Shown: one piece after another, positions 25,047-53,204 of the stretch
How positions within the stretch are numbered: position 1 is the first letter of the stretch
Layout of the letters: every line of letters starts with the position of its first letter
From: an uncultured Methanoregulaceae archaeon
Lineage (GTDB): Archaea; Halobacteriota; Methanomicrobia; Methanomicrobiales; Methanospirillaceae
DNA length: 64,000 nucleotides
Assembly (NCBI GenBank): GCA_963701095.1
Contig: OY969564.1
Coordinates: 448,001 to 512,000 of the forward strand
Direction: 5' to 3'
Notes under the pieces: model-generated
Database searches by the model: none
What the model was told of the DNA's origin: nothing
The model's input: only the letters and a program-made list of their open reading frames with translations
Position numbers and translations under genes: made by a program

Positions 25047-25712
25047 TTAGTATTCACTCCGCCGCTTTAAGACGTAGACTATGAACACCATGCCTAAGAC
25101 CATAGCTATTGGCAAGCCTACGGTGGGGAATTCAGGCACATACGGTATTTGCCGGACCGGGATAAGGCTGTCTTGATAACTAACTGAATCCCAGAGGATT
25201 ACACCGTACCACTGTCCCGCACTTGGAACGAATGACGAGTGCGATATTGCGTTGGTCACCAATGTGCTAACGGCGCTCTTTTCTCCGGGTGAAACAGGAC
25301 CTCCAGAAATTGATGTCCAATAAGCATTAGGTCCACCATTACCGAGTTGCCATATTGCACTCTGGATGGTATACTTGTCATTTGATCCCTCATTGTTCAG
25401 AATCCAGTTAATAGCCCCCCAATTGGCAGTAGGTACCTGAGATGGAACTAAACCTAATGTTGAATAAACATTCCATGTTTCTTTGTCCCCGTTTTGCAGG
25501 ACGTCTACCCTATCACTGCACCACGAGACGTATAGCGGCGGTGAATTGGGAAGATCTCCAGTTCCTCCTGATATGATGTTAACTTGCGCGTATCCAAAGA
25601 GTGATGTAGGATACGTCACCATACCGTACACCGTTGTTGGTAACGCTGCCGAGGCTACAGAAACCAAGGCAACTAATCCAACAAGCATAGCCAAGATAAG
25701 GACTTTTCTCAT
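25047..25712 (-). CDS. PEF-CTERM surface protein with thioester-domain-like motifs (paralog 1)
   Basis: Signal peptide; single Cys in WCSD; IQSAIW; YQDSLI; VPEFP-TM-KRR tail. Confidence 0.85.
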   Translation of the reverse strand: MRKVLILAMLVGLVALVSVASAALPTTVYGMVTYPTSLFGYAQVNIISGGTGDLPNSPPLYVSWCSDRVDVLQNGDKETWNVYSTLGLVPSQVPTANWGAINWILNNEGSNDKYTIQSAIWQLGNGGPNAYWTSISGGPVSPGEKSAVSTLVTNAISHSSFVPSAGQWYGVILWDSVSYQDSLIPVRQIPYVPEFPTVGLPIAMVLGMVFIVYVLKRRSEY

Positions 25713-25841
25713 ACAAGCATTCCTCCTTTTTTCAAAATGATATCCAGTCGGGAGATATTATAAATAAATGCGAAGCACAGAAGCAATGCAGATCTTTTTT
25801 GTGATTTGAAAATTGTTCAGAACCATTAAAAGAGAAAAAAA

Positions 25842-26503
25842 TTAGATTTCACTCCGCCGCTTTGCGACGTACACTGTGAATACCATGCCCAACACCATAG
25901 CTCACCGGCAATCCGACGGTTGGGAATTCAGGGTACTGGCGGTGGTGTTTTTGGGACCGGGAGAGGGATAAGAATATCTTGAGTGGTTTTTGAATCCCAG
26001 AGGATTACACCGTACCACTGTCCCGCACTTGGAACGAATGAAGCATGTGATAATGCAGTGGTTACCAATGTGCTTACAGCAGCCTTTTCAGCGGGAGTAA
26101 CTGGAGACCAATAGGCGTGAGGTCCACCATTACCAAGTTGCCATATTGCGCTCTGGACGACGTGCTCGTCGTTCGACCCTTCGTTGTTCAGTATCCAGTT
26201 AATAGCGCCCCAATTGGCAGTAGGTACCTGAGATGGAACGACACCCAATGTTGAATAAACATTCCATGTTTCAACCTTTGCATTTTGCAGGACACCTTCT
26301 TTGTCAACGCACCAGCCAGGGTATAGTGGCGGTGAATTGGCAAGATCTGCATTTCCTCCTGATATAACATCAAATTTCACATACCCAAAGAGTGATGAAG
26401 GGTACGTTGCTTTACCAGTCACAGTCGTTGGTAACGCTGCCGAGGCTACAGAAACCAAGGCAACTAAGCCAACGAGAATGGCCAAAATAAGGACTTTCCT
26501 CAT
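25842..26503 (-). CDS. PEF-CTERM surface protein with thioester-domain-like motifs (paralog 2); sorting signal interrupted by two +1 bases
   Basis: MRKVLIL start at 26503; WCVD, VQSAIW, TQDILI. Removing one base at 25931-25933 and one near 25902 restores VPEFPTVGLPVAMVLGMVFTVYVAKRRSEI* (TAA 25842-25844). Confidence 0.8.
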
Positions 26504-26792
26504 ATAAGCATACCTCCTTTTAACAAATTGATAACCTTCCGGAGATATTATAAATAAATGCGATGCAGCGATGCATGGCATCTGGTTCCATGAATGTAAT
26601 TTATATGCTCCTTGAGGGAAGACGGCATGTTTGTAAAGGAAATAAAGGCGATATAAACGATTACTTCAGCCGGTCGACAAGCGAGTGAAAGCGAAGATAG
26701 TATTGCTTGCCCGGCTCTCTTCAGTTTTTTCGCTACACTAGGCGAGTCATTCTATAATAAAAATATTTTTCAAATAACCGAAGATTTCGATC

Positions 26793-27830
26793 TTACGATA
26801 AATCAAGCTCGTTATTTTGCTTCAATGCATGGTATATACTTGACATAAGATTATTTATTGGTGACAACCACTTCAACTGATAATAGGGAACGGTAGTTCC
26901 GTTGAATTTTCTTTTGAAAGGAAACAGGGAATAATCATCGGCACCCAGGATCTGAAAGACCTTATAGTGATTATCCGCACTCCACCGTATTGCTTCCCAG
27001 AGGAGCAATTCATTGGGACTCAGCCCTTTGAATAAACATTTCGGAGCGCCAATCCAGAAACTCACCATATCTTTATATGCAATTGTTATTATTCCACTGA
27101 GACGTTCTGATCCAGCTCGTGCAATGAATACTTTTATATGGTCCGGTGAAAAAAAAGTAAAAAGTTCGGAAAGGTAGTCTTCTGGAGAATGGATTCTGTT
27201 TCTTTTTGCGAGCATATCACGGATGAAGAACGCATCTTCTCTTGTTCCATCAGAAACGGTAATTCCTTCTTTTTTTGCTTTTTCAATATAATATCTCAGA
27301 CTTCTGTTGAAATTTTTTAAAATATTGTCTGATCCGCACGTAAGATCGATATGATAGGTGTATCGTGGGGTTGCAGAATACCCGCCCCATTTGAATAATC
27401 TGCAATCACTAAACCCCGGGGGAGTATTAATCTGAATATAATTCGCTTTCAGATTTTTTTTAATGAATCTGTCTGCCTGTATCTGCAAATCCTGGAGGAA
27501 CATTTGTTTCTTTTCTTGTTTCATGGTTTCAAGATCGGGGATAAGAGGACCGAGGTATAACAAGTCTATATTCGAAGGAGGGGAATAACAAAAGGTGCTC
27601 ATGGGAGTTTTAAAAAGATACAGTGGATAAATCCCTACAATTATTTCGTTTTGTGTGATAAACAAGGGAAAAAATTGAGCATTGAACTTGAAACCGGCAA
27701 TTTTTATAACCGAATATTTTTCCAGAAGTTTCAGCCATTTCCATGTATAAAATAATGTACCGTTTGGGGACCTGTCAACTATTGTGTCCCACTGTTGAGA
27801 ATCATTTTCTTCACCAATTATTAATTTCAT
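26793..27830 (-). CDS. FemAB-like GNAT family protein (paralog 1)
   Basis: WDTIVDRSPNGTLFYTWKWL, SPP..YLGP, YIEKAKKEGITV, SPNELLLWEAIRW, FKRKF. Confidence 0.85.
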   Translation of the reverse strand: MKLIIGEENDSQQWDTIVDRSPNGTLFYTWKWLKLLEKYSVIKIAGFKFNAQFFPLFITQNEIIVGIYPLYLFKTPMSTFCYSPPSNIDLLYLGPLIPDLETMKQEKKQMFLQDLQIQADRFIKKNLKANYIQINTPPGFSDCRLFKWGGYSATPRYTYHIDLTCGSDNILKNFNRSLRYYIEKAKKEGITVSDGTREDAFFIRDMLAKRNRIHSPEDYLSELFTFFSPDHIKVFIARAGSERLSGIITIAYKDMVSFWIGAPKCLFKGLSPNELLLWEAIRWSADNHYKVFQILGADDYSLFPFKRKFNGTTVPYYQLKWLSPINNLMSSIYHALKQNNELDLS

Positions 27831-27944: not shown

Positions 27945-29405
27945 TTACTTTGAAATAATTCTATTCACAAATTTTAGCAATCCGTTCCTTAGACTTATAT
28001 CCTGGTAAAGAATGACCGCATAGTAAACAACGGATACGATTACAATAATAATCATGATAATCACAGAGGAAAGAGAAAGAAGCATCGCAACGAATAGGGG
28101 TATGCAAACGATCGATCCAAACAATAGATAATACCCTATATCATACAACATATCTCTCCACGAAACCTCGGCAATATTTAACGAATATATGTTCATCCAT
28201 CCTCCGAGAGCGGTTCCCGCGAGTGAAAGAAGTATCATGCTCATAATTGGACTATGCATTACCCCTCCTATAATAAGAGCGGAAGCACTCAAAACAAGGA
28301 GTGAAAGATTAAACCATAGAGTAACGGCCTGCTTTCCGAGAACCTGATAAATATAATACAGGGGAATCGAAACAAAGCTCATAAAAAAACTCGGCGCTAA
28401 AATTTGTGCGTACTGTCCTGCAGTAGCCCATCGCGTTCCCAAGACAAATGAGAAAATCACCGGTCCTGCTATAACCAGAATCAGGCAGATGAATATGCCA
28501 AAAGAGATCAACCTTTTGAGTACCGCTTTCACGACGTTTTTAATCCCTCCTGTAAGATTTTTCTCGAGGCATGCCTGCTGGAAAAAAACGGTACCGATTG
28601 AAGTTCCAACTAGTTTGGAAGGTAATCTTAATGCTATATAGGACATGGCATAATATCCGACTATTTCCGGAGAAAAATTAAGAGCGAGCAAAAAAGGAAT
28701 AAATTGAATTACGACGTTTGCTGCCAGATCTGATCCAAAACTGTATTGAGGAAATTTTTTATAATATATCATTAATTTTTTTATCTTCTGGAAAGATGTA
28801 TGATAGAAGAGAGAGAAATCTTCACTGATTTTTTTCAACAGCATAATAGCTATTGTCGCATCATTAATCATCGATCCAAGAATAAGGCCAAAAGGGGTTG
28901 ATTTCAGAATCCCATAACCGATTGAAAACCCCTTACCTGTAAATGAACTTACTACATTCGCGGAAGCAAGGGCATTATATTGTTCCTGTCTTGAGATCCA
29001 AAAACCAAGTACATAGGCATAACCGCTGAAAATGATTGCAAACGGCAGAAGTGGTAGATAACGAGATAATGTAGGGGCGTTTAATTCTTTTTCTATAGTG
29101 CCGGAAAAGAGAAAGAAGCAAAGCGTGGTAATAAATGATATAATTGTAATAAGAGACAAACATAAGATGACGACGTTTGCTGCATCCTCCTTTTTTTCCG
29201 GTAAAACTATTGCATAATAATAGGAAAAACATGCAAGAGGCGCTATAAGGCTGACAATGGAGAGAAATATCTGGAATATTCCAAAATCTGATGGGGAGTA
29301 AATCCGTGCAAGGATCGGAGTCGCTATTAACCCGAGTATCTGCCCCACAAGAGTTGATGAAGATAATTTTAACATGTTTGAAAGAAATTTTGACATCGGA
29401 CCCAA
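27945..29405 (-). CDS. Wzx-like oligosaccharide flippase (MOP superfamily)
   Basis: PILARIYSPSDFG, about 12-14 TM segments, EIVGYYAMS, WATAGQYAQIL. Confidence 0.88.
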   Translation of the reverse strand: MGPMSKFLSNMLKLSSSTLVGQILGLIATPILARIYSPSDFGIFQIFLSIVSLIAPLACFSYYYAIVLPEKKEDAANVVILCLSLITIISFITTLCFFLFSGTIEKELNAPTLSRYLPLLPFAIIFSGYAYVLGFWISRQEQYNALASANVVSSFTGKGFSIGYGILKSTPFGLILGSMINDATIAIMLLKKISEDFSLFYHTSFQKIKKLMIYYKKFPQYSFGSDLAANVVIQFIPFLLALNFSPEIVGYYAMSYIALRLPSKLVGTSIGTVFFQQACLEKNLTGGIKNVVKAVLKRLISFGIFICLILVIAGPVIFSFVLGTRWATAGQYAQILAPSFFMSFVSIPLYYIYQVLGKQAVTLWFNLSLLVLSASALIIGGVMHSPIMSMILLSLAGTALGGWMNIYSLNIAEVSWRDMLYDIGYYLLFGSIVCIPLFVAMLLSLSSVIIMIIIVIVSVVYYAVILYQDISLRNGLLKFVNRIISK

Positions 29406-29603: not shown

Positions 29604-30605
29604 TTGACTCGTAATATGGTGCTATTTGATCTAAGTCCTGATGATTATTGGTATCTGATGATTTTTATTTTTTTTATAGTTCCGTTTTTTTTCACGGTCG
29701 CGGCGCTACCCTATATCATAAAAAAACTCCGGCTTAACGGACACGTGGTCCGGGATATGTACAAGCCTGATCAGCCTGAAATTCCTACCCAGGGTGGTAT
29801 TCCCATTCTTCTCATCTCTATTTTTTCCCTTTCAATTCTAACTTTATTTTATAGTAAAATGGTTACGCCAATTAATTACACCATTATTGTAGTAGTAATT
29901 CTTTTTGCCCTTTTCGGCTTGTTAGACGATCTCGTTAACATAGGCAGACCCGTAAAACTGGTGTTATTGTACTATTGTTCCTATCCCCTCATTCCCTTCA
30001 TTACGACCACTGCATTCTTTATTCCCTTTTTGGGTCATGCAGATTTATCTATTATTTATCTCCAACTTATCATCCCAACATATGTACCCGTGGTTTCAAA
30101 TCTTGTAAATATGCATTCTGGATTTAATGGGCTTGCGCCGGGTCTTTCCCTCATCGTCCTCATTTCCCTTGTCATAAAAACCTATATTTACGGTAACATT
30201 TCAAACGCCCTTTTTATTGTCTGCCTTACCGGGGCCCTCGCCGGTTATTTTCTGTTTGAAAAGTACCCCTCGAAAATATTCTGGGGAAATATCGGGGCTC
30301 TTGCTATCGGAGCTGCTATCGGCGCTATAATTGTGTCCCAAGGATTTATTATCGGTGGTTTTATTATGCTTATTCCCCATATAGTGAATTTCCTTCAGTA
30401 TGTATTTTGGCGGGTGAATAAAGATAAATATCCGATCGCAAAATTTGGAAAAGTTCGAGAAGATGGAACACTTGAAGTACCGAACCCTCTCACCCTTAAA
30501 TGGGTTCTGCCGTATTATTTCCGTATGACAGAAAAAACGGCGGTGTACGCCATGTTTGCTGTAACCGGTATTTTTTGTCTGATCGGGATATTTATACCTT
30601 GGTGA
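29604..30605 (+). CDS. Polyprenyl-phosphate HexNAc-1-phosphate transferase (MraY/WecA/AglH family)
   Basis: RDMYKP..IPTQGGI, GLLDD, NLVNMHSGFNGL, KIFWGNIG. Confidence 0.88.
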   Translation: MTRNMVLFDLSPDDYWYLMIFIFFIVPFFFTVAALPYIIKKLRLNGHVVRDMYKPDQPEIPTQGGIPILLISIFSLSILTLFYSKMVTPINYTIIVVVILFALFGLLDDLVNIGRPVKLVLLYYCSYPLIPFITTTAFFIPFLGHADLSIIYLQLIIPTYVPVVSNLVNMHSGFNGLAPGLSLIVLISLVIKTYIYGNISNALFIVCLTGALAGYFLFEKYPSKIFWGNIGALAIGAAIGAIIVSQGFIIGGFIMLIPHIVNFLQYVFWRVNKDKYPIAKFGKVREDGTLEVPNPLTLKWVLPYYFRMTEKTAVYAMFAVTGIFCLIGIFIPW

Positions 30606-30635
30606 TATAAAGAAGACCTATTTCGGTGATAATCT

Positions 30636-30998
30636 GTGATAGATGTTATAAGTGTCATAATCGCGTTTTTAAGAGTCCTGCTAGGTTTTGTACTTGTATT
30701 GTTCATACCCGGTTTTTTCCTGACCTTGGTTTTTTTCCCCAAAATCTCAGAGATTCAGATTTTTGAACGACTGGTGTATTCAGTGGTTCTTAGCATCGGA
30801 ACGGTAATTGCATCAGTTCTTTTCATGGATGTCGCATTAGGGGTCAATACTACCCCCTTGAATATTGTCTTTGGAATTTTGTCGGTTTCATTTGTTTTTA
30901 TTATAATTTGGATTCTGCGATTGTATTTTCCGGAAACCTTTATGCGAATAAAAAAGTTTTTCATTTTAAAATTTTACACGTTAAAGATGAAAAAATGA
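30636..30998 (+). CDS. DUF1616-like membrane protein
   Basis: LFIPGFFLTLVFFP...FERLVYSVVLSI. Confidence 0.75.
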   Translation: MIDVISVIIAFLRVLLGFVLVLFIPGFFLTLVFFPKISEIQIFERLVYSVVLSIGTVIASVLFMDVALGVNTTPLNIVFGILSVSFVFIIIWILRLYFPETFMRIKKFFILKFYTLKMKK

Positions 30999-31004: not shown

Positions 31005-32570
31005 TTGATGAATGAAATATTTATTAGATCTCTCAGAAACTATCACCATCTCAATCACCAACAACAAGAGAACGTTATACAGTTAGTTGATATATCAAAA
31101 AAATTTTTCCAAAAAAAGAATCTGGAGCCCTATGAGGGAAGCTCAATCGAATCTGAACATACACTTATTGTGGAATGCGGCCATCAACCTAATTTTCTTC
31201 CTCATTCAGCAACGTGGAAAAAAGCTTTTTTCATGAGTTGGTTATGCAAGAAATTGGAAAAGGGCGGATCAACCCCTCTTGCTTTTTTTGGCTTGGCAGA
31301 TCAGAATATTTCGACTGCGAGACTATTATCGAAGAATCAGGTTCCAGATCTGAATAAAGATGGATTCATAAAAATTGGATTTAAAATTAGCAGTAAGGAC
31401 CGGTTGCGATCCTTTGCCTGCATTGAAAAACCTCCTGCTGAAGAATGGGAAAAGGAGATTGACCGAATTCGGCGGCATTATAAAGATATTTCAGAGAAAA
31501 CCAGATTTGGGGATGAAAATGTTAAAAACCAGTGGACCCGGATTCTCGATATTCTTTGGTCAAGCTATAATTGTGCTGACAATTTTCCAGAACTCAATTC
31601 CCTGGTTTTCGTAAGAATCTGCAGGGAAATTTTAGGCGTTAACCTTTTCTTTTTCTTGTACTCCGATATGCACAACGCCGGCATGTTCCTTGAAGAATCA
31701 AAAAAAATTCTAAAAAATCTCCCCCGTTTTAATCATATTTACAATCAGGAGATTGCAAGAGACGGTCTGAATATACCGTCGGTTTTACCAAACCACATGC
31801 CGTTCTGGTATGAGTGTGAGTGTGGAGCAAAACTTGATCTCTTTCTTGATTCCGATGCAAGCTGCAAACCGGTCTGCCCGGGTTGCAAGAAGGAATATCA
31901 TCTCGCCTTAAAACCTGATTTTGAGAATCTGGAAAAATATTATTGGAAAATGGATTTTAACGCAGTATCGAGAAATATTATTATGGCTCAAGGATTAGGA
32001 GATACCATTTTTGTCTCCGGATCCGGGGGATCTTCGATCTATGGGTGTATCTCGGATAGAATCTCCAAGGACCTAGAATTTCATCGTCCTATTACTCTCG
32101 CATGGCAATCGAAAGATCGCTATCTGGGAATGGCACATAAAATTATCCTCCGGGACTTAATGAAAACATTTTCCCTTATTTCCGAAGATTTTTCCTCTGG
32201 ATTTCTGAAAGAAAAGATCGAAAAAAAGTTCAATGAGTTATCAGCAAACCTTAAGGATTCTAAGGAGCGGGATTTGAGAGAAGATCTCGAATATTGGAGC
32301 GGCTTGCAGAATTCCGCAAAAAATCTTCTGGTATTCTCTAGAAATTTATTTGCCACGACGCCGTCTTTTATCGATCTTCTCGCAAATTACCGGTCAGATA
32401 CAACTATTAAAATATGGGAAAATGCATTAGATACTCAAGAGGTTCATGAATATGGTTATATGTACCAGATTCGTAGCGATATCAATTATCCCGGAATTTT
32501 CTTTCCGGAGATAGATCCGGCCTCGTTTCCTGAACTGTATACAGCAATAGATAATGTTGGAGTTAACTGA
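31005..32570 (+). CDS. Hypothetical protein, BshC-like ligase candidate with Cys-rich insert
   Basis: IVECGHQPNFLP..WKKA, FFGLADQN, CECG...CPGC, FVSGSGGSSIY and a C-terminal coiled region. The ORF is clear; the family call is tentative. Confidence 0.55.
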   Translation: MMNEIFIRSLRNYHHLNHQQQENVIQLVDISKKFFQKKNLEPYEGSSIESEHTLIVECGHQPNFLPHSATWKKAFFMSWLCKKLEKGGSTPLAFFGLADQNISTARLLSKNQVPDLNKDGFIKIGFKISSKDRLRSFACIEKPPAEEWEKEIDRIRRHYKDISEKTRFGDENVKNQWTRILDILWSSYNCADNFPELNSLVFVRICREILGVNLFFFLYSDMHNAGMFLEESKKILKNLPRFNHIYNQEIARDGLNIPSVLPNHMPFWYECECGAKLDLFLDSDASCKPVCPGCKKEYHLALKPDFENLEKYYWKMDFNAVSRNIIMAQGLGDTIFVSGSGGSSIYGCISDRISKDLEFHRPITLAWQSKDRYLGMAHKIILRDLMKTFSLISEDFSSGFLKEKIEKKFNELSANLKDSKERDLREDLEYWSGLQNSAKNLLVFSRNLFATTPSFIDLLANYRSDTTIKIWENALDTQEVHEYGYMYQIRSDINYPGIFFPEIDPASFPELYTAIDNVGVN

Positions 32571-33193
32571 TGACAACAAAGGTTCTGGTTATCAGCCCCC
32601 ACACCGATGATGGTGAACTAGGGTGTGGAGGTTCTATAGCAAAATTCATTGAAGAAGGGTATGAAGTGACGTACGTCGCTCTTTCTTGCTGTGAAAAATC
32701 TATCCCTCCCCAGTATCCGAAAGATATTCTTTCTCGAGAAGTAAAATCTGCGACCAAGATCCTTGGAATAACTGATCTGGTATTATTCAGTTTTGAGGTT
32801 CGGGAATTTCCAAGGTTGCGTCAGGAAATCCTCGACACGTTAATCCGGCTGCGGAATAAAATCCAGCCCGACATGGTTTTTACTCCATCGAGAAATGACA
32901 CTCACCAGGATCATAAGATCACGGTCGAAGAAACGATGAGAGCTTTCAAGAAATGTACCCTTCTCGGATATGAACAGCCTTGGAACAATATCACGTTCAA
33001 TACCTTGGCATTTATCCCACTTACGGAGAACTACATTCAGAAAAAAATAGATGCACTTTCATGTTATGAGACGCAGAAAGGAAAGGCCTATCTCAATCAT
33101 GAGTTCGTACGGGGTCTTGCCCTGACACGAGGTACACAGATTGAAGAAAAATATGCGGAAGCGTTCGAAGTGATCAAATGGGTTATTCATTAG
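32570..33193 (+). CDS. PIG-L/LmbE (BshB/MshB-like) N-deacetylase
   Basis: SPHTDDGELGCGG and DTHQDH. Confidence 0.9.
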   Translation: MTTKVLVISPHTDDGELGCGGSIAKFIEEGYEVTYVALSCCEKSIPPQYPKDILSREVKSATKILGITDLVLFSFEVREFPRLRQEILDTLIRLRNKIQPDMVFTPSRNDTHQDHKITVEETMRAFKKCTLLGYEQPWNNITFNTLAFIPLTENYIQKKIDALSCYETQKGKAYLNHEFVRGLALTRGTQIEEKYAEAFEVIKWVIH

Positions 33194-38082: not shown

Positions 38083-38985
38083 TTATTTTTCGGAATTTGG
38101 TGAAACGGTCTTCCTTTTTGCAAATGAAATGCCAATCTGGTGTGTAAAATAATAATACCAGAAGATAATCAACCAGAGAGTAAAACAAATCCATCCGATG
38201 TAGATATGCACCTGTTCCATGATTCCAACAGGGCCAAAGAAATACCCACTAAGTGCTATTAGCAGTATCCGTGCAAAATTGGCGCAAACCGTTCCCAGAT
38301 ATCCTATTCCGATAAGAATGGCACTTTTTTTCGAAATACTTTCAGGAAAACTTGCAAGAACTATTATAACCGAAACAGTGAAAGTACCCAACGACCAGAT
38401 ACCTGTGCAATCTGATATAATAGCGAGGGAAATTGGTGCACCTGTTTGGGACATGAACGATATGATATTACCATTGAAAGTGGATTGAATTCCTAAAAAA
38501 TTTAATAAATCCGTGGTAAATAAAACGATATACGGGATAATTGGCGCTGTTATCCAATCCTGGTTTCGAATAAAAAGGCCATATACTCCATAACCTACTA
38601 CTGCTATATAGGGGATAGAGACGGGAAGTACTAACGATCTGAAATTTAGCAGACCAAATAAAATGACTCCAATACCAGAGAGCACCAATATTAATTCTCC
38701 GATTGAAGTTGGGCTTTTTGCTATCCCCATAGGAATGCTGATTATACTTAAAAAACACATGAGAATTCCCACGGCAATAATAATTTTTTGTTGTCGCTGT
38801 GAAAAACTACTTGTGGTGTTTCTTGAAATATAAAGAATCCCGATGCAAGATAGAATCCATATCCCTAAAGCATCGATTTCCATATAGGTAGCTTTTTGAT
38901 AAAACAAAAGACATACTGCGAGTAAAACCAATGTAATAACTACCCAGATCTTTGAAACACTAAATGCATTATCGGGCAGCTTCAT
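38083..38985 (-). CDS. artC: Archaeosortase C (PEF-CTERM-associated exosortase/archaeosortase family)
   Basis: Multi-TM protein with the Cys-Arg-His triad pattern (ISDCTGIWS, ANFARILLI, QVHIYIGW). Three PEF-CTERM genes lie in the window. Confidence 0.82.
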   Translation of the reverse strand: MKLPDNAFSVSKIWVVITLVLLAVCLLFYQKATYMEIDALGIWILSCIGILYISRNTTSSFSQRQQKIIIAVGILMCFLSIISIPMGIAKSPTSIGELILVLSGIGVILFGLLNFRSLVLPVSIPYIAVVGYGVYGLFIRNQDWITAPIIPYIVLFTTDLLNFLGIQSTFNGNIISFMSQTGAPISLAIISDCTGIWSLGTFTVSVIIVLASFPESISKKSAILIGIGYLGTVCANFARILLIALSGYFFGPVGIMEQVHIYIGWICFTLWLIIFWYYYFTHQIGISFAKRKTVSPNSEK

Positions 38986-44416: not shown

Positions 44417-45457
44417 ATGGTTCTGACTTTAAAAATTCTCGACATTTCGAAAGAAAAAGATTGGGATGAATTAGTCAGTTCCTCTAAACATGGTACTATT
44501 TTTCACTTGATTTCATGGTTAAGGATTGCAGCAGAACAATCAGGGACAGAATTAATGCCATGTATGTTCTACAAAGGAACACAGCTTGTCGCAATATATC
44601 CGATATTTATTCAGAAACATGGATTAGCTCGGGTGGCTTTGTCACCTCCTCCACGATCCTATATGATATATCTGGGGCCGGTAATTTCAGATTATGATTC
44701 CTTAAAGCAGGATAAAAAAGAAAGATTATATTTTCAGATTCAACAGGAAATGGATAAGTTCATATTTAATATTAAAAAATGCAAATACGCAAGAATTCAA
44801 TCCTCTCCGGGAATTCTTGACTCCAGGCCTTTAAACTGGTTGGATTACGATATCGAGCCATATTATACCTACCGCATCGATTTGTCCGGAGGCGTAGATC
44901 GGGTCTGGAATAAGTTCAACAGAAAACTCCGGGTTGAAATTAACAAAGCTGTCCGAGACGGAGTCACTGTCCGAAATGGCGGCAGTGATGACCTTATATA
45001 TATTCATGATGCCCTCTCTACTAGATATCAGCAGCAAGGACTTAAATCCATTAATTACAAAAATTATTTACAATCTCTTTATAAGGAATTTCAGAAGAAT
45101 ATGAAAATATTTGTGGCGGAGTACCAGGGCCAACGAGTTGGGGGAACCATCAATCTTTTTTTCAAAGATGTCATGTATCTCTGGGTAGGGATTCCGAAGA
45201 GTGATCTTGTCGGGATCTCTCCTAACGCAGTGATTCAGTGGGAAGCAATTAAATGGGCACATGCGAATGGGATCGGGATCTATGAAGAAATGGATGCAGG
45301 TCATGATCCTCGTTTACGATATTTTAAATCAAAATTCAATCCAGATTTGGAGATCTGGTATTCTGCGACCAAATATTCGTCATTTAGCTACAGGATCGGA
45401 AAAGAATTATTCGATCTTGCACGAAAAATTAATTTCCAAAAAATTCGATCGAGGTAA
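44417..45457 (+). CDS. FemAB-like GNAT family protein (paralog 4)
   Basis: WDELVSSSKHGTIFHLISWL, SPPP..YLGP, SPNAVIQWEAIKW, FKSKFNP. Confidence 0.85.
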   Translation: MVLTLKILDISKEKDWDELVSSSKHGTIFHLISWLRIAAEQSGTELMPCMFYKGTQLVAIYPIFIQKHGLARVALSPPPRSYMIYLGPVISDYDSLKQDKKERLYFQIQQEMDKFIFNIKKCKYARIQSSPGILDSRPLNWLDYDIEPYYTYRIDLSGGVDRVWNKFNRKLRVEINKAVRDGVTVRNGGSDDLIYIHDALSTRYQQQGLKSINYKNYLQSLYKEFQKNMKIFVAEYQGQRVGGTINLFFKDVMYLWVGIPKSDLVGISPNAVIQWEAIKWAHANGIGIYEEMDAGHDPRLRYFKSKFNPDLEIWYSATKYSSFSYRIGKELFDLARKINFQKIRSR

Positions 45458-45472: not shown

Positions 45473-46468
45473 ATGTCGTTAATAAAATTTATTAAAAAAA
45501 TGATATTTGCCGGTTTTTCTTATCTTCCGGGTACGATAAAAATCATCTCTTATAGGGCATTAGGTGCAAATATTGGAAAAAATGTTGAATTGGGCATGGG
45601 ATCGATAATTAAGCCGTTTGACGGCGATTTTAAAAAAATCCAAATATCCGACGGTGTCATTATTGGGGATGATGTAAAAATTCTCGCAAAATACCTTATC
45701 CTTGGTGAAGGTTCACAGATTAAGGCTTCGACACGCATCTGGGGACAATCATCATTTTCTCTGGGTCCTTTGGGTTATATCGATAGGGAATGTCATTTTG
45801 ATTTACGGAAGGATATCACGCTCGGAAAAGAAACAACAATTAGCGGGGGAAGCTGGTTCTACACTCACATGGTATTTCTTTCTGTTCTTGATGGGGCTCC
45901 GTTCACATTATCTTCAATAAGAGTTGGTGACCGGACATATCTGGGTGCAAATGCGTTTGTTCTACCCGGAGTTACTATTGGTCATGATGCGGTGGTGGGT
46001 GCGCGATCCGTAGTTACACGGGATGTCGAATCAAATGCGGTTGTAGTGGGTAACCCGGCACGTCAGATCGGAAAGACTCCAGAACGATTCAAAAAATTAG
46101 TATTTGCTGATAAGGAACTTTTAGTAAAAGAGATCCTTGATCAGTTCATTGAAGTGTATGATAAAAATACAAAGGTGGTTGGGGACGCAACTAATAAGAG
46201 TTACCGTTTCGTGCATGGTAATCATTTCATCTATTATCAATCTCTCATCACCGATCTAACGATGATAGAAGATTTTGTTAAACGAGACCAGCCGCCTAAT
46301 GTAATAATATCTTTCGGGATTTCCGATAAAATTAAAGAATATTGCCTGCGGCACAAAATTGAATGGATTGATCTGGAATCAGGGAAGCATTCCAAAAAAA
46401 TCTCTGCTGCAGGTCTGACTATTGAGAACTTCTTTAGTAATTATGGTATCAGATTTCAACCTGAATAA
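45473..46468 (+). CDS. Hexapeptide-repeat (LbH) acyltransferase with C-terminal extension
   Basis: VGDRTYLGANAFVLPGVTIGHDAVVGARSVVTRDV..NAVVVGNPAR. Confidence 0.88.
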   Translation: MSLIKFIKKMIFAGFSYLPGTIKIISYRALGANIGKNVELGMGSIIKPFDGDFKKIQISDGVIIGDDVKILAKYLILGEGSQIKASTRIWGQSSFSLGPLGYIDRECHFDLRKDITLGKETTISGGSWFYTHMVFLSVLDGAPFTLSSIRVGDRTYLGANAFVLPGVTIGHDAVVGARSVVTRDVESNAVVVGNPARQIGKTPERFKKLVFADKELLVKEILDQFIEVYDKNTKVVGDATNKSYRFVHGNHFIYYQSLITDLTMIEDFVKRDQPPNVIISFGISDKIKEYCLRHKIEWIDLESGKHSKKISAAGLTIENFFSNYGIRFQPE

Positions 46469-46534: not shown

Positions 46535-49500
46535 TTAAAGACTTCTTATTTCGTCAATGATCCCAAATAAACGTCCTTTTACATCCAGGTTTGATTGGTA
46601 GGTTTCAAACCCCGGGCATTGGATTTTTATTGTATGTATACCGCGGTTTAAATTTACGTCCACTTCGCCTTGCGCGTTAGCGAGGTAATATTTTGTATCG
46701 ATAATAACTTCGGCATTTCTCAAAGGTTCTCCTGCTTCGTCTTGTAATTTGATATTAAGGAGCCCCTCAGTCATATGTTTAGGCAGATTTACAATGATTT
46801 TTCCTCTGGGTTCCATTGGTTGGACGAGAATTTCTTGTGTTTGATATGCGGGAATGTCTGTACTGATATCAAGGATAACATTTCCGTTATCCTGTGTCAT
46901 TCTTACAATTTTTCCTTTGCTGACATAATATTCTCCGGATTCCAATGTCGGCAATATTACTTGGAAGGCAACTTGTGTTGCACTCTTGTTGTTTTTATTA
47001 GTCATATTAATCATAGCCACATCATTTAGCACAGTCCCATTATACTGAATGTTTTGGATCTCTTTGTAATGCTCCGCTATGACATCTGGCGTCGTAAACG
47101 TCAGACCATTATTATTAGCATACGAGATTAGTGATTGGATATAATCGGTATATGCCGGATTGCCAATATCACCAGATCGAATGATAAACAGAGCCATTTC
47201 ATTCATAGCTACAGATTCATCTATGGTCGCTTTCCAGGCGGAAAGGGTTGTAAATGGATCTATCTGGCTTGAAAGTTCGGAACTCGTCGGAGCAGATACA
47301 GGAAGCAAAGCGATATTTGTGGGACTATTATGATACATCGCTAACTCCGGGTCTCTTATTTGCTGCCCTATTATTCCATAATATGGTGGAGATACATATG
47401 TTGGAAGCATGAGGGAGAAATGGTCGTCTGATATTATTTTAAGCGTATCAAGATTATACTCTAGCATGCTTGGCATGTAGCCGATGAGCGGGATATGGCT
47501 TTCGCTTGCAGCGCTTATCACCGCTTCTATATCACTTGCCTGAGTACTATAATTGTTAAACGTATTCGCTACACCAGTTGAGCTTGAACCGATTATTTTA
47601 ATTCCTCTACTATTTATTGAGCTCAAATCCACAGTTCCGATTTTTGTCGTGTTCTGAATTGTGACATTCCCTCCCTCCGATATTGATGAATTTTGGGACA
47701 TGATTATATTCTGCTGAGGAAGCACACCTTCAGTATAAGGGACACTATCGTTAAGGAGGATGTTGTAGCCCTCATTTACATAATCAGAAGAACCGAGATC
47801 CGAGGTTGGAGTGCGATACCCCACAAGCATTATCGGGACTATGCCATCAGGATAGTCCAAAAGGCTGATCCCATCCTGTGAATGGATATTGTTTTCAGCA
47901 GTTATTTGATCTCCCGGTGAAAGGAATTGGGTGATATGCAATGTTGCTCCCGGCTCGAGAGAATCGGTCTGGGAAAAACTGACACTGCTCATATTGTAAA
48001 TGGTGGATCCTCTGTATGTTAACACATTAGGACTTGGGGCAGTAGGTTCGTTTTTAAGACAGATTCCACTATCCCTATCATAAATGTACAATTCATCAAA
48101 ATTATTATTCAATTTCACATTGTCTTGTGACGGGTAGATATGTCTTGTCACAGCAGTCTGATTACCTGTAATAATAAAATCATTCAGAGGTACAAAAAGA
48201 TCCGTTGAGACTTCGGTATTCATCTGTGAAGGCGCCGTTGATGTCACCCAATCGTTAGATATCAGAAATTCCCGTTTGATTGATGTCGGATAAAATGTAT
48301 ACTGTATAACTAATGATGCTTCGTTATTGCCATTTGGATCTTTGAGAATTGTCTGATAACGAAGTTGATTGTTATTCATCTGAGGGACTATAGATATATT
48401 GTTCAGCATAAAAGCATCAACAGTACTATTTTGTTCTGAGGTCTCATTTAAGGGAGTAAATGGGTTGACATATCCCTTCCTGAGCCCTGAGATCTGAATA
48501 CTATCAAGGAAAAATCCTTCGCCAAGAGAATTATCCGTGGGAGTCCCGAATTGTTCGATAACCGGATAATTTCCGTTTAATACAATTTTATAGGCGTCCG
48601 TTTGGACTTGGATAGAAGTTGTTGTCTTCTCAACGGTGATATTTCCTGCAAGAACTTTTTTCTCACTAGGTATTTCTGAAGAAATGATATCATAAATACC
48701 ATAATCTTTGCTTGAATAGATTTTATTCAGCGCTGTATCATTATCAATTTCAAGCATCGACCCTGTTTCACCAAGATTTGCAACAATCTTATCCGATATC
48801 ATGATATATTTTAAATTAAACAGCTGTTGCAGATCTCCGGCAGGAATTGTATCAGGGTCGAGAAGGGTACTTCTCAAAAGACCCAAGAATGTTCTTGTCT
48901 CATAACCATTCTGTAGTCCATACGTTACGTCAGTCATATTTGTGTAAATTGGAACCTGTCGTAACCCATACCCGACAACTACGTCAGACGGATTGCCTTG
49001 CTGACTAAGCCATTGCATACCATTAACAACATAATCTTCACCGGCAACTTGAGGCAGATAATAGCTTGTTGCAAGTGAAGCTGTAAGAATCACGGTAAGC
49101 AAAACAACTAACCAAACAATGAATGTTGCTTTTTTATTCTGCGGATTTCTGGTTTCCAGATAGGAAATAACCTGCCAAAAGCCGAGCGCAGAGGTAATCG
49201 GAATTATTATAACCAGAAAACTGATCTCTCTAAGTGCTCCTGTTGATATAGCGTTAAGAAAGAGTATATCCGGCAAGACTGCCACAATTAACACTGTCAG
49301 AAGGGTGCACTGTCCTTTGCTATCCAACCGGAAAAGACCTATAAATGAAAAAACGATCTGGAGGGGACCCGACCATAATGGTGTCGCAGCTACAGAATGT
49401 GAGATATTACTGATGGGAAGTGTAAGCGGAAACTGGTTTTTGGAATGCTTGACCGACTCTGCCACCTTTCTGTGGATATAAAGGAAAATTTTTCCAAGAA

Positions 49501-50446
49501 CAAAAATGAATGCACCAAGAATAATCGCATACACAAGCTCTTGGTTGAGAATAACATTCTGGTAGAATACGTTCCCTAATTGCAATGGTAAATCGAAATT
49601 GAATTTATCAGCAAGATAGTTACCGGGTGATAAGAACAACGTCGATTTTTCCGTGTACTGATTCTGGATCTGGGGGAACCATGTAAGTGACAATATATAG
49701 ATGACAAATGTACTGATAATGACAAGATACATCGGTAACGATGACTTTCCCCAGATCAGGCAGTACAAAAGATAGAATATTATTGAAAATGAAACCAGAA
49801 AAATAAATGTTCCTGTATGACTAATAATAATGACAAAACTTGATAACCATATTATCGGAAGCAATTTCCACTGGAATGGTTCCTTAATTGCTATATAAAT
49901 CAGAATAAACAAGAAGGGAAGAATAAAAATTGAAGGTCGGTATGAAAGAAGAAGAAGCGTTACATTGGGCATCGAGATAAGAAAAAGGAGAGCAAAAATT
50001 TTTTGATCTTTTATCTCTAGGAACGCATCTGAGTATATATAAAAAGATCCAATGATAATCAATAAAAAAATAATGTTCAATATGAATACGCCGCTTGTAA
50101 CAGATAATCCTGTAATTTTTGCAATAATACTCCCAAAAAGCCATAAACCGAAAGGATAATTATACTGATTGTCTCCACTTGATGGATCTGTCACAAAATT
50201 TCCCATTTTCTCATAAAAATCTGAAATTCCTGACGATATTGCCATCTGTTGGGTCTGAAACAGATGTGTATAATCGTCAGTTCCGAAAAAACGTCCATAA
50301 TGAAGAACTGGTATAATGAATGAGATAAGAAGAACTGCCACTAAGAACAATGTGAGCAAGAAAACAGGATCTAATGCTTCATTTTGACCAGCTGATCGTA
50401 GCGCTTTAAACGAGAATTTATCCTTCAACCATTTTCCTGGCTTCAT
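46535..50446 (-). CDS. Large multi-TM GT-C-like membrane glycosyltransferase fused to extracellular domains
   Basis: FFGTDDYTH after TM1, YPFG, about 13 TM segments, NGMQWL...YIMISD...IYSSKDYGIYDI; later a degenerate NodB-like segment and a carboxypeptidase-regulatory-like beta tail. Confidence 0.6.
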   Translation of the reverse strand: MKPGKWLKDKFSFKALRSAGQNEALDPVFLLTLFLVAVLLISFIIPVLHYGRFFGTDDYTHLFQTQQMAISSGISDFYEKMGNFVTDPSSGDNQYNYPFGLWLFGSIIAKITGLSVTSGVFILNIIFLLIIIGSFYIYSDAFLEIKDQKIFALLFLISMPNVTLLLLSYRPSIFILPFLFILIYIAIKEPFQWKLLPIIWLSSFVIIISHTGTFIFLVSFSIIFYLLYCLIWGKSSLPMYLVIISTFVIYILSLTWFPQIQNQYTEKSTLFLSPGNYLADKFNFDLPLQLGNVFYQNVILNQELVYAIILGAFIFVLGKIFLYIHRKVAESVKHSKNQFPLTLPISNISHSVAATPLWSGPLQIVFSFIGLFRLDSKGQCTLLTVLIVAVLPDILFLNAISTGALREISFLVIIIPITSALGFWQVISYLETRNPQNKKATFIVWLVVLLTVILTASLATSYYLPQVAGEDYVVNGMQWLSQQGNPSDVVVGYGLRQVPIYTNMTDVTYGLQNGYETRTFLGLLRSTLLDPDTIPAGDLQQLFNLKYIMISDKIVANLGETGSMLEIDNDTALNKIYSSKDYGIYDIISSEIPSEKKVLAGNITVEKTTTSIQVQTDAYKIVLNGNYPVIEQFGTPTDNSLGEGFFLDSIQISGLRKGYVNPFTPLNETSEQNSTVDAFMLNNISIVPQMNNNQLRYQTILKDPNGNNEASLVIQYTFYPTSIKREFLISNDWVTSTAPSQMNTEVSTDLFVPLNDFIITGNQTAVTRHIYPSQDNVKLNNNFDELYIYDRDSGICLKNEPTAPSPNVLTYRGSTIYNMSSVSFSQTDSLEPGATLHITQFLSPGDQITAENNIHSQDGISLLDYPDGIVPIMLVGYRTPTSDLGSSDYVNEGYNILLNDSVPYTEGVLPQQNIIMSQNSSISEGGNVTIQNTTKIGTVDLSSINSRGIKIIGSSSTGVANTFNNYSTQASDIEAVISAASESHIPLIGYMPSMLEYNLDTLKIISDDHFSLMLPTYVSPPYYGIIGQQIRDPELAMYHNSPTNIALLPVSAPTSSELSSQIDPFTTLSAWKATIDESVAMNEMALFIIRSGDIGNPAYTDYIQSLISYANNNGLTFTTPDVIAEHYKEIQNIQYNGTVLNDVAMINMTNKNNKSATQVAFQVILPTLESGEYYVSKGKIVRMTQDNGNVILDISTDIPAYQTQEILVQPMEPRGKIIVNLPKHMTEGLLNIKLQDEAGEPLRNAEVIIDTKYYLANAQGEVDVNLNRGIHTIKIQCPGFETYQSNLDVKGRLFGIIDEIRSL

Positions 50447-50606
50447 TCACTCACTCAAATATTATTAATTTAATTTTCGGGAAATTAACTCCTATTATCG
50501 CATTTATTTAATAATCGAATTTTGCGAGCACGAAATATATTCGATTTTCAGTTTGTTTGTAGACAAGCATATATATTTTTGATCATAGTTACACAAATGT
50601 TGTTTT

Positions 50607-53204
50607 GTGAAATCTATGAACTCTGCTCGTTGGATAGGTTTTCTTATAATTCTTGCAGCACTGATTCCAGTTGTATCGGCAAATACCCCGACGACCGGGC
50701 ATCCGTTCCTGTTATTTCATGATATCAGTCAAACTCCAGGTTACCAATATCAGAACATGGATCCATGGAATACATGGCAGAATTCCATACTATCCGGTGC
50801 TGATAGATCGCTTGCTTTGGACTTCTCCGGAAATCTCGGAGCGTATGATCGGGTCCAGTATAGAGCAGGTTATGCGCGAGATCTTGGATTAGCCTACCAA
50901 ATAACCAAAAAGCCGCAATACGCCACCAAAGCCAAAGAAGCACTCTTAAATTTATCTGTTGGGACAATAAGTGAAAAAGTGGACAAAGCTAATGCTTTAG
51001 GTGAATATTGTCTTGCGTATGATTTTATCCAACCCACATTGGATCCCGCAACCGATACTATTATCCGAGATAAACTGGCCACACTTGCCGATATGGTATA
51101 TGGTGATCTTAACGGTAACGGCACCACTCGTAATTATGTATCATTTGCCGATTATCATGGTCAAGCTTATCCTATGATGGGTATTGCCGGTGCAGCTCTT
51201 TATGATTACACCAACCCGAATCATTTCCCTCTGACGTCCACACCTGCAGACTGGCAAAAAGTTGGAACTGACTACCTGTTTGTTAACGATCAGCTGCATT
51301 CATATAATCGCTCTCTTTTTAGTTTCGGTTTTGACGAAACTTCGGGAAAGTACCTGAATGGGGCCTATAAATTTTATGTGTATGATGACCTTGATTTATG
51401 GCTCCAAGTCGCGTATCATGCATATGGCGAAAACCTGCTGGATATCTATCCGGCGGCTAAAAAAGGCGTTACCACTGAGATTTGGGATTCGCTTCCCAAC
51501 AACTATGCCAGCAATTATGTCACAAACGGAAATACAGGCTGGGCCTATCAGACCGCCATTATAAGCCTCCTCTCTGACAGCGAGAAAGGACCGGTTCTGA
51601 ACCATATTGACCTGATAGAAAATTCGACCGTCCTGCCTTTCAGCAGATTCTACCAGGCTGGTCCGCCAGCACTTCTCTATTGTGTGTACGGGAATTATGC
51701 ATCAATCCCCCGGTCGTTCCCTACCAACACAAGTTATCTTGATCCTAACAGCATCTTCCAAGTTTTCCGCGGGAGCTGGAATGACGACGCTGACTGGTTA
51801 TCGTTAGTAACCTTCAATGTCGCTTCCCATAGCAATCGGGACTCACTACATGGTGATCAGCTTGCTTTTGAATACTACAGCCGAGGCGATCTCCTTCTTG
51901 CCGATGCAGGTGAAAATAAGTATGTTCTCGACAGGGACTACGGCTATTATGATATCGATCATAATACCCTATCCCTCGAAGACCCGCGGACGCCGTTCCC
52001 GGTCTCACCTTGGTCCAACAGTGCATCTGCAGGAATATTCAAAGGAAACGCTTCTGGCATCGCTACCCCGGTTACAGTTAGTGCAATCGCCCAAGTGCCA
52101 TGGATGCAGCTCGAGCAGGCAAATGCACAGATTACCAGCGTTATGACCCAAACGCTCGGGAATTCCCAGACCCTTTCCAGTCCAATTCAATATGAGAGGA
52201 CGATCTTATACCCGGTATCGACTTCGGATCCAAAATCGAATTATTTCATTGTTGTCGATCGCATGGAAGGAACTGAATCGTGGGTATTCCGTAACATTTT
52301 CCGGCCAACCAGTCTGATGGTAACACCCACTACGAATGCCAATAAAGATAATTACAAATCCCAGTCTGAAGTCGGCCATGTCAACGGCGCCTTATCGATC
52401 GGGACGACACCTTACAATTGGCAGACACTCCCTTACAAGGCGGAGACTGATACCGGATTAACTACAGATTCTTTTTCCTGGGCAACGACCAATCCCTATG
52501 GCAATGACGTCAATTTTAACCTTGTTTCTTCTCCCGCTTCAGATATCCTGATCGAGAAAAATGTCGGCAGAATTGGCGGATATGAAGCTGAATCCGAAGT
52601 TTTTAATCCTATCGTGTATTTTAGGAGCCCCGATACCACATCACTGTACCGGGTCACCGTACTCCTCTCCAGCTATTCGAATGAAACACCTAAGACTGCT
52701 TCTGAGATCCAAGTGAATGGAAACGGTCATGCATTACAGGTTCACTCTTCCTCGTACGATGATTATATCTATACCGGTGAAGGCGTATCTTCATTTGCAG
52801 GATTTTCTACGGATGCTGATACTGTCTTTATCCGGAAAGGGGGAGATACTGAAGAGATAACCCTACTGAATGGATCTTATCTTGATGACCAGAATGATCG
52901 TATTATTAGTCTATCAAAGAATGTCGATATTCTCACGTTAAGTAAAGTAGGCGATCAGATTGACTACCGGATAAGCGGTAACGAAAACGTCGGAGGTTCA
53001 CTTTTTGCCAATACTACAAATACAGCCCAGAGTATCAGTGAAGGCATATATACGCAAGATAATATGCTAGAATCAAGTGCTTTAGCTTCAAATGTGGAAT
53101 CGACTTTGGGATCAACCTTAGAACCCATTACGAACCAGGAGGATTTTATTTCCCGTTTATATTCATTCGTTTCAAAGGTAATAGATACAATTAAAAAATT
53201 GTAA
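50607..53204 (+). CDS. Secreted heparinase II/III-like polysaccharide lyase (paralog of 40879-44289)
   Basis: HPFLLFHDISQTPGYQYQ, YCLAYDFI, HGDQLAFEYYSRGDLLLADAG...DHNTL. Confidence 0.72.
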   Translation: MKSMNSARWIGFLIILAALIPVVSANTPTTGHPFLLFHDISQTPGYQYQNMDPWNTWQNSILSGADRSLALDFSGNLGAYDRVQYRAGYARDLGLAYQITKKPQYATKAKEALLNLSVGTISEKVDKANALGEYCLAYDFIQPTLDPATDTIIRDKLATLADMVYGDLNGNGTTRNYVSFADYHGQAYPMMGIAGAALYDYTNPNHFPLTSTPADWQKVGTDYLFVNDQLHSYNRSLFSFGFDETSGKYLNGAYKFYVYDDLDLWLQVAYHAYGENLLDIYPAAKKGVTTEIWDSLPNNYASNYVTNGNTGWAYQTAIISLLSDSEKGPVLNHIDLIENSTVLPFSRFYQAGPPALLYCVYGNYASIPRSFPTNTSYLDPNSIFQVFRGSWNDDADWLSLVTFNVASHSNRDSLHGDQLAFEYYSRGDLLLADAGENKYVLDRDYGYYDIDHNTLSLEDPRTPFPVSPWSNSASAGIFKGNASGIATPVTVSAIAQVPWMQLEQANAQITSVMTQTLGNSQTLSSPIQYERTILYPVSTSDPKSNYFIVVDRMEGTESWVFRNIFRPTSLMVTPTTNANKDNYKSQSEVGHVNGALSIGTTPYNWQTLPYKAETDTGLTTDSFSWATTNPYGNDVNFNLVSSPASDILIEKNVGRIGGYEAESEVFNPIVYFRSPDTTSLYRVTVLLSSYSNETPKTASEIQVNGNGHALQVHSSSYDDYIYTGEGVSSFAGFSTDADTVFIRKGGDTEEITLLNGSYLDDQNDRIISLSKNVDILTLSKVGDQIDYRISGNENVGGSLFANTTNTAQSISEGIYTQDNMLESSALASNVESTLGSTLEPITNQEDFISRLYSFVSKVIDTIKKL

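Follow-up and report, generated by a model that had tools for sequence, protein, structure and literature searches.

The window analysed here is a 64,000-nucleotide stretch of an uncultured Methanoregulaceae archaeon (positions 448,001 to 512,000 of contig OY969564.1, or G000:C1:448001-512000, where G000 is the genome under study), and its positions 25047-53204 hold a block of genes for glycan assembly, protein sorting and sorted cargo. This block is very probably one co-inherited surface glycan and sorting module. By analogy with bacteria, its two deacetylate-then-aminoacylate gene pairs might make the lipid-linked amine acceptor of the sortase and so form an archaeal counterpart of the Wbp/Vim linker, a reading held with a little less than even confidence. 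A sequence-only reading of the same DNA had proposed a surface module making a lipid-linked, amino-acid-decorated uronate glycan, and co-occurrence and synteny now support one co-inherited module that likely makes such a glycan. Every open reading frame (ORF) that it named is present at 25047-53204, and the module extends leftward to a WbpB-like gene at 18967. The block behaves as a low-GC island (39.7% GC against 48.1 +/- 1.9% for 28-kb windows of the genome, 2 of 520 windows being as low) in a single-contig assembly of 2.63 Mb with 86% completeness. Among 12 other genomes of the genus the sortase is found in one, and the BshC-like and lyase-like genes of the block in none.

Gene-neighbourhood and co-occurrence profiling, which the sequence-only reading had proposed as its check, found the components together in other genomes. 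In a sample of 150 genomes of the order (151 including G000) the sortase occurs in 15, and all carriers of the BshC-like gene (10/150), the full-length VimE-like gene (11/150) and the lyase-like genes (9/150) fall within those 15, the exception being a VimE/GNAT fragment at the edge of a 2.6-kb contig of G133. Five long loci (G009, G025, G039, G045, G063) keep the sortase, initiator, BshC-like, PIG-L, DUF354, VimE-like and GT-C-like genes, two to five GNATs and both halves of DUF1616; most of the remaining order loci lie on short contigs. In a 200-genome sample of the phylum the BshC-like family is present in 28 genomes, and four of these (G215, G192, G280, G264) have the order BshC-like, PIG-L, TIGR03762-positive ArtC in one run with DUF354, VimE-like and GNAT genes. 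In a further genome (G198) the distance between ArtC and the BshC-like gene is two ORFs.

The sortase itself (38083..38985, minus strand) is a PEF-type archaeosortase with several transmembrane (TM) segments that passes the PF09721 and TIGR04178 cut-offs and keeps the Cys-Arg-His triad (C193, N236/R239, H260). It shares with archaeosortase C (ArtC, TIGR03762; cargo family TIGR03024) the PEF-CTERM cargo, the Cys, N..R and HxHxGW motifs and DUF354, GNAT and DUF1616 neighbours, but gives no match to TIGR03762 at E<=0.01, its orthologues reaching 52 bits at best against a cut-off of 100 bits. Identity to 16 extracted ArtC sequences is 22-31% over ~90 residues, and in a tree covering 16 of 20 ArtC loci, with 4 low-scoring ones left out, a branch with 99/100 support sets those 16 rows apart from the 15 window-type rows. 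Because profile, identity and tree all separate the enzyme from ArtC while the catalytic residues are kept, the ArtC label of the sequence-only reading is rejected, and the protein is, judged from its sequence, an unnamed subfamily that would work like ArtC. Its orthologues in 15/150 order genomes are 42-58% identical, and the other sortase of G000 is ArtA (311 bits). PEF proteins accompany the sortase in 16 of 16 genomes; all 15 in the order have PEF-tailed proteins, detected by TIGR03024 in 11 and by motif in the locus in 4. A TIGR03024 match in G035, where there is no PEF-tailed ORF, is treated as chance. The DUF1616-like proteins seen earlier were placed in the right family, but two ORFs are halves of one split DUF1616, as family matches and orthologues show: a 120-aa N-terminal membrane half (30636..30998, plus strand) and a 136-aa C-terminal half (39030..39440, minus strand).

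Both deacetylase pairs lie on the plus strand in a tightly spaced run at 29604-38046, with gaps of -4 to 40 bases. In the first, a 521-aa protein resembling BshC, WbqC and class I lysyl-tRNA synthetase (LysRS), with an HQP motif and a Cys4 zinc ribbon (31005..32570), is a predicted amino-acid ligase and is followed directly by a PIG-L/BshB-type de-N-acetylase with intact PHTDD and HQDH motifs (32570..33193). The HQP motif and the four Cys are invariant in 17/17 BshC-like sequences. This protein has no Pfam match of its own; eight members gave no PF10079 match at E<=1, and profile searches returned no PDB match, solved BshC included. The Atlas places it beside clusters with Rossmann-like_BshC (PF10079) on 15% and 49% of members, and homologues weakly match WbqC (E 1e-4; above cut-off in 2/8) and class I LysRS (E 2e-4). 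WbqC is a putative glycyl transferase. The BshC-like label is to be taken as a lead from the Atlas, as the GT-C-like label of a protein described below is a lead from the Atlas and TM prediction. PIG-L comes directly after this gene in all five long loci of the order, as it does in six genomes from other orders, and in G031, G061 and G013 the gene is not followed by a PIG-L match. A lone second copy (39% identity) lies at G000:C1:623332-624921 (L078:16332-17921), near an MJ1255-type glycosyltransferase and ~12 kb from ArtA. The possibility of a second module was considered for this paralogue (G000:623332) and for the second sortase (G000:636829) and was rejected, these being a lone paralogue and ArtA.

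The second pair joins an intact CE4 deacetylase to a VimA/FemAB-like GNAT. The deacetylase (542 aa; 34291..35919) has invariant LTHDxD, HG, RQH and LWH motifs and keeps all CE4 motifs in 14/14 aligned homologues; called a second deacetylase by the sequence-only reading, it does match VimE NF053580 (86 bits, E 1e-24) but stays below the equivalog cut-off of 440 bits. Next to it is the GNAT at 35916..36968, followed by another at 37009..38046, with two more at 26793..27830 (minus strand) and 44417..45457 (plus strand), all four with Acetyltransf_6/FemAB matches. A profile of 25 GNAT sequences finds FemX structures first (E 5e-12). Scores against exosortase-locus families fall below their cut-offs, with 36-57 bits against 260 for TIGR03019 and 16 bits against 276 for TIGR03006. 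Family matches agree with the earlier naming of the initiator, flippase, DUF354 protein, PIG-L deacetylase, four FemAB-like GNATs, LbH protein and regulator.

A route to the acceptor can be proposed from these genes. The first gene of the run (29604..30605) is by family match an initiating Glycos_transf_4 enzyme, which would load N-acetylhexosamine-1-phosphate on polyprenol phosphate. The DUF354 protein (33203..34294, plus strand; family match), which we take to be a glycosyltransferase, would then add a Wbp-type diacetamido-uronate, as suggested by the WbpB-like neighbour and by a WbpE/B/A-like operon elsewhere. The neighbour (18967..19911, minus strand) is a Gfo/Idh/MocA dehydrogenase by family matches and adjoins the module in 4/5 long loci. 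It is the second WbpB-like copy; the first sits in the WbpE-WbpB-WbpA-like operon at G000:2295741-2299238, in which a DegT-type aminotransferase, a Gfo/Idh/MocA protein and an NDP-sugar dehydrogenase form one run of candidate WbpE, WbpB and WbpA functions. For WbpD there is a candidate, the hexapeptide (LbH) acyltransferase (45473..46468, plus strand; family matches), which could equally be an O-acetyltransferase. No WbpS-like gene is present in the locus, the rest of the genome not having been searched for WbpS. The two deacetylases, whose site motifs are observed to be intact, would expose amines, and the adjacent BshC/WbqC-like ligase and FemX-like GNATs, whose homology is likewise observed, would add amino acids.

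The later steps would take place at the membrane and outside it. The MOP/Wzx flippase (27945..29405, minus strand; family matches) would export the glycolipid, and the GT-C-like protein (46535..50446, minus strand) would polymerise or transfer the glycan. This 1303-aa protein has 10 predicted TM segments, an extracellular degenerate CE4-like domain and an Ig end; a weak PMT_2 lead comes from the Atlas (PMT_2 on 12% of one cluster), and a PDB profile search of the family gave no result. Its C-terminal region aligns to the VimE-like family in hhalign over 202 columns with catalytic residues lost, which lends weak support (E 4e-4, probability 35%) to the degenerate deacetylase-like domain suggested earlier. 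The sortase would cut PEF cargo and transpeptidate it onto the free amine, and two proteins related to polysaccharide lyase family 39 (PL39) would trim or bind the uronate glycan, by a Tyr-only route if catalytic. Proteins with a thioester domain (TED) would be optional covalent-adhesin cargo, and most cargo genes are observed to share an upstream box for which a regulator of the module would be the binder.

An aminoacyl-sugar lipid is favoured as the sortase acceptor because the VimA/VimE linker provides a precedent and because the genes making the ArtA acceptor are syntenic with that sortase. According to passages on Porphyromonas and Tannerella in PMC7468200 and PMC13086638, the choice of amino acid on the linker sugar is set by VimA, and VimE is a proposed deacetylase; a passage of PMC7468200 speculates that PEP-CTERM loci too use an amino-acid-modified sugar acceptor. 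As those passages describe for P. gingivalis and T. forsythia, in the present system a VimE-like CE4 deacetylase comes directly before a VimA/FemAB-like GNAT, WbpA/B/E-like genes are in the genome, and a C-terminal sorting protease handles cargo in need of an amine acceptor. The systems differ in that here the lipid carrier is archaeal and there is no lipopolysaccharide, an exosortase-family enzyme replaces the type IX secretion system sortase, a second pair (PIG-L plus BshC/WbqC-like) and up to five GNATs are present, no WbpS-like gene is in the locus, and the VimE cut-off is far from reached. Bacterial exosortase A/PEP-CTERM exopolysaccharide loci (TIGR03019, TIGR03006), in the parts of PMC1569441 that describe them, likewise combine a sortase with FemAB-like and deacetylase genes in a glycan locus, have a tetratricopeptide repeat (TPR) protein nearby and scatter cargo genes under a common upstream DNA motif. 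In contrast, the present locus is archaeal and misses those family cut-offs, with a palindrome beside a TATA-like stretch rather than a sigma-54 enhancer and helix-turn-helix (HTH)-PAS proteins instead of PrsK/PrsR.

Several observations weigh against this reading. One-step transpeptidation is described as unproven even for ArtA in a passage of 10.1101/2023.06.07.544157, every curated cut-off (VimE, TIGR03019, TIGR03006) is missed, and the counts in the order sample come from related genomes that are not independent. One 96% complete genome (G106) has the sortase and PEF genes without a BshC-like, long VimE-like or lyase-like gene; it does have a short VimE-like gene, a GNAT, a flippase and DUF354, but at 40-70 kb distance. 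Two others hold PEF genes: G147 (98%, 60 contigs) has at least four of them, ArtA as its only sortase and no DUF354, VimE-like or BshC-like match, and G027 (99%) has a single sortase match. Short VimE-like genes are common without the sortase (any VimE-like match in 65/151 genomes), as is DUF354 (53/151). In the phylum sample, three of three high-scoring ArtC loci (family f7) are without a BshC-like gene, and none of the module genes turns up within 20 kb in G227. The contig that bears the module in G153 includes no sortase. A distant BshC-like gene occurs in 21 genomes of family f10, where the single locus inspected (G271) is without the module. Low-GC islands may be lost in binning, which weakens these exceptions to the coupling of sortase and module without removing them.

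Two of these genome sets deserve separate description. The G027 locus (L182, G027:C23:1-21000) starts at a contig edge and comprises two PEF genes and genes for PKD proteins, a close orthologue of HTH-PAS type, DUF1616 and DUF354; no PEF-type sortase was found there, and one may lie beyond the edge. In the three high-scoring ArtC loci DUF354 is present in 3/3 and a GNAT in 2/3, and in all three (L101, L102-L103 and L104 of G294, G274 and G235) ArtC faces an HtpX-like metalloprotease gene, after which come a large membrane protein and PEF genes.

In an alternative reading, a simple lipid amine such as archaetidylethanolamine would serve the sortase as anchor for PEF proteins, and the aminoacylated glycan would be a separate product, put on surface proteins or lipids by the GT-C-like enzyme, the genes clustering only through serving the same surface. 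Such an arrangement is distinctly less probable than the aminoacyl-sugar lipid. The ArtA/PGF-CTERM system with PssA/PssD is akin to the present one in its protease family and in having acceptor-making genes next to the sortase, through whose synteny with artA they were found, and in the passages of PMC7157517 that treat it archaetidylethanolamine is the proposed anchor; it differs in that acceptor, and G000 has its own ArtA elsewhere. The separate-glycan arrangement would agree with the sortase or PEF genes found without the glycan core (G106, G147, G027), with the common VimE-like and DUF354 genes lacking a sortase, and with the 9 and 20 N-glycosylation sequons of the lyase-like proteins. It sits poorly with the four genomes of another lineage in which the sortase gene immediately follows PIG-L, with the restriction of BshC-like, long VimE-like and lyase-like genes to sortase genomes of the order save the G133 contig-edge fragment, and with the lack of any N-glycosylation sequon in the cargo proteins PEF1 and PEF2. 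The converse of the cargo relationship fails, in that PEF genes without a PEF-type sortase are found in G147, G027 and the fragmented G133.

The lyase-like pair bears on what becomes of the glycan. Described earlier as two secreted lyases, both proteins are indeed secreted but are PL39-related and keep the catalytic Tyr but lack the catalytic His. The first (1136 aa; 40879..44289, plus strand) was identified by profile as heparinase II/III-like and has Ig and further C-terminal domains; the second (50607..53204, plus strand) carries invariant Y254, at the Dp0100 catalytic Tyr position, and invariant R411. A profile of 38 sequences matches the PL39 alginate lyase Dp0100 (6JPN; heparinase II/III-like fold) over ~800 residues (E 3.5e-36), followed by PL17, PL35, heparinases and dermatan-sulfate epimerase; a single-sequence PDB search gave no result. 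Y254 corresponds to the Tyr in REGAHY and, like R411, is invariant in 38/38, whereas position 413, aligned to the ADNH His, has M, S, T, N and Q as its five commonest residues. That His is the catalytic base in PL39 according to a passage of PMC10056287. The pair thus differs from Dp0100 in that neither the His base nor a second neutralising His is conserved, in the invariant Arg two residues before, and in its biosynthetic locus.

Tyr-only syn-elimination fits gluco- or manno-configured uronate, as in PL5, PL8 and heparinase II. Such a route on such a substrate would fit the residues kept by the lyase-like pair, and a binding or epimerase role may also be considered. The orthologues mostly come in pairs, in which one member often has a C-terminal membrane anchor and the other bears PKD/Ig arrays, an arrangement that would suit synthase-associated trimming enzymes if the block made a secreted, acyl- or aminoacyl-decorated uronate polymer as capsule or matrix, with GNATs that may use acyl-CoA and PEF proteins bound non-covalently. 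Extra modifier genes that vary across loci (ATP-grasp, acyl-CoA-ligase-like, formyltransferase, methyltransferase, radical SAM) point the same way, as does BacA/UppP, which suggests carrier recycling and is present by sequence in 3/5 long loci. A free polymer is nonetheless unlikely: the block has a single soluble glycosyltransferase candidate, the best structures for the GNAT profile are tRNA-dependent aminoacyl transferases, and the tight linkage to the sortase is left unexplained. A BacA/UppP-like gene, which also counts in favour of the aminoacyl-sugar lipid, lies inside or beside the module in five genomes (L025, L029, L033, L090, L092) and not in the window, G000 having two copies elsewhere.

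The cargo within the block consists of two tandem PEF-CTERM proteins, PEF1 (25047..25712, minus strand) and its 76% paralogue PEF2 (25842..26503, minus strand), and the TED-like character given to them by the sequence-only reading is upheld by motifs and fold. PEF1 has a signal peptide, a class I TED fold with C65, Q117/W121 and Q180, and a PEF tail. C65 and Q180 are invariant in 12/12 aligned sequences and Q117/W121 are kept in 11/12; in the PEF1 model (pLDDT 76) strands 61-65 and 180-187 and helix 113-126 carry these motifs as expected from the class I definitions (Cys motif, Gln motif, TQxxhW helix) in a passage of PMC4450167. Foldseek ranks 1-10 for the model are all TEDs of Cpa, CpTIE or SfbI (E 5e-5 to 4e-4, probability 1.0, TM-score 0.43-0.47), and a Pfam scan of the alignment gave no result (best TED E 0.15). 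On the modelled structure, PEF1 and PEF2 carry the class I TED fold. They share fold, three motifs and secondary-structure placement with Cpa, SfbI and CpTIE as treated in that passage, and differ in being archaeal, in joining a stand-alone domain directly to the PEF tail without a stalk, in having WC instead of [YFL]C, and in an identity of 12-15%. A literature search on archaeal thioester domains found no description among the entries listed, which does not show that there is none.

In the window the PEF2 tail is out of frame through two assembly errors; a truncated pseudogene was rejected, as contigs of three runs omit the two extra bases. The genome has 15 PEF-tailed genes, including those with out-of-frame tails, and excluding a protein with a PEY-type tail and no box (G000:C1:2553286-2554299). 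Only PEF1 and PEF2 among them carry both the Cys and QxAIW motifs, and in relatives such PEF proteins occur in 3 of 15 loci (G045, G063, G106), a distribution by which TED proteins appear to be optional cargo. Outside the block a third PEF-CTERM protein, with an Ig domain, lies at 59675..61105 (minus strand; family match).

The sequence-only reading had gone further and proposed that thioester adhesins cross-link to glycan amines and so aggregate cells, with lyases that cut the matrix, under a single regulator, to disperse them. In its favour, model and Foldseek bear out the TED fold, floc formation in Zoogloea depends on PEP-CTERM proteins according to a passage of 10.1101/2023.06.07.544157, HTH-PAS genes accompany the block, and the box links most PEF genes. 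This switch is nevertheless improbable and ranks last, for three reasons: PEF proteins with both TED motifs are in only 3/15 relatives' loci; the lyase-like proteins are without the His base and their genes are absent from G009 (99% complete, single contig, core present), whose locus has LVIVD proteins instead; and the glycan, sortase, GT-C and lyase-like genes have no box upstream. A role as sortase acceptor accounts better for the amines than one as targets of thioester adhesins.

The box is the palindrome TGC-N3-GCA-N4-TGC-N3-GCA, with 10 exact sites in G000 against 0.2 in shuffles and none for a reversed control; the 150 others each have four at most. Exact sites precede 7/15 PEF genes and 3/2588 other ORFs, and sites with up to two mismatches, which abut AT-rich TATA-like stretches, precede 11/15 and 41/2588, counts that are partly circular in that the pattern was drawn from the same upstream regions. 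As a check independent of that source, both PEF genes at the G106 locus have the box. In G147, 4 of 5 hand-picked sites (of 19) precede PEF genes, and most G106 sites read precede non-PEF genes. None of 14 PEF-pattern ORFs outside the genus has a box at up to one mismatch. Within the block the box marks PEF1 (25769..25790, minus strand; one mismatch), PEF2 (26559..26580, minus strand; exact) and the intergenic region between the WbpB-like and HTH-PAS genes (20021..20042, plus strand; one mismatch, abutting an AT-rich TATA-like stretch); PEF3 outside it has an exact site (61204..61225, minus strand). The box was rejected as a module-wide or order-wide signal, since it does not precede the glycan operon or the genes for the sortase, the GT-C-like and the lyase-like proteins, and those 14 ORFs are without it. 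It parallels the shared motif upstream of bacterial PEP-CTERM genes noted in a passage of PMC1569441.

Six HTH-PAS paralogues are candidate binders of the box, among them the HTH and multi-PAS regulator at 20204..22930 (plus strand), which has an orthologue near the G106 sortase. Another HTH-PAS regulator (39540..40697, minus strand) is found in 3/5 long loci at E<1e-10, plus G009. Because the exact box occurs in 56/151 genomes of the order sample against 2 for the reversed control, the box regulator is likely, on this distribution, to be wider than the module. Box sites also lie upstream of genes for large secreted proteins that have no PEF tail (G000:C1:1126193 and 962616; G106 L155 and L162), whose repeats presumably are of IPT/TIG type, and the regulon would therefore cover more surface proteins than the sortase cargo. 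In the divergent gap between the HTH-PAS and 1136-aa lyase-like genes (40698-40878) inverted repeats TTGTAA-N4-TTACAA are present and the box is found only at four mismatches; these repeats are possibly a second regulator site.

Further features of the window complete the description. A TPR protein with an N-terminal hydrophobic segment (24392..24898, minus strand), probably accessory, has a 41% orthologue beside the G106 sortase. At 18196-18642 (minus strand) lies a small ORF without a Pfam match, which we take to be an ATP-cone protein, preceded by a box site at 18620-18641 with one mismatch. The window agrees almost base for base with contigs from the runs of one study, and contigs of four runs show no indels in 37500-53204. 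In 53264-58761 MutY and MutS look broken; contigs of four runs differ there by single bases, and truly broken genes were rejected in favour of assembly errors.

Analogues of the individual parts are known from bacteria, for which the linker idea has also been published as speculation. What is new here is a sortase subfamily distinct from ArtC, a PL39-related family with altered residues, a box upstream of cargo genes, and structural evidence, by model, for a TED in an archaeon. Literature searches on archaeosortase/PEF-CTERM, ArtC with glycosylation, and BshC in archaea found no description of the module in the passages or listings searched, the original ArtC paper (Haft 2012) being outside that search. 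For the acceptor used by exosortases and PEF-type archaeosortases, a passage of PMC7468200 offers speculation about an amino-acid-modified sugar. With a candidate acceptor pathway, sortase and cargo in one island, in single-contig genomes, specific knock-outs and a mass to look for can be named, and three objects become testable: the archaeal class I thioester domain, the lyase-like family with altered catalytic residues, and the regulator box for archaeal sorted proteins. Surface attachment in methanogens bears on granule and biofilm formation. In its fullest form, the proposal is a kind of anchoring resembling that by glycosylphosphatidylinositol (GPI), in which a new archaeosortase subfamily would join PEF-CTERM proteins, thioester 'harpoon' adhesins included, to an aminoacylated amino-sugar lipid from the PIG-L/BshC-like and VimE/VimA-like pairs, with the His-less Tyr/Arg PL39-related family editing or shedding the coat and the HTH-PAS regulator controlling cargo via its own box. 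This whole is a doubtful conjunction; if true, GPI-like anchoring would name the long-sought acceptor of PEF/PEP-CTERM sortases.

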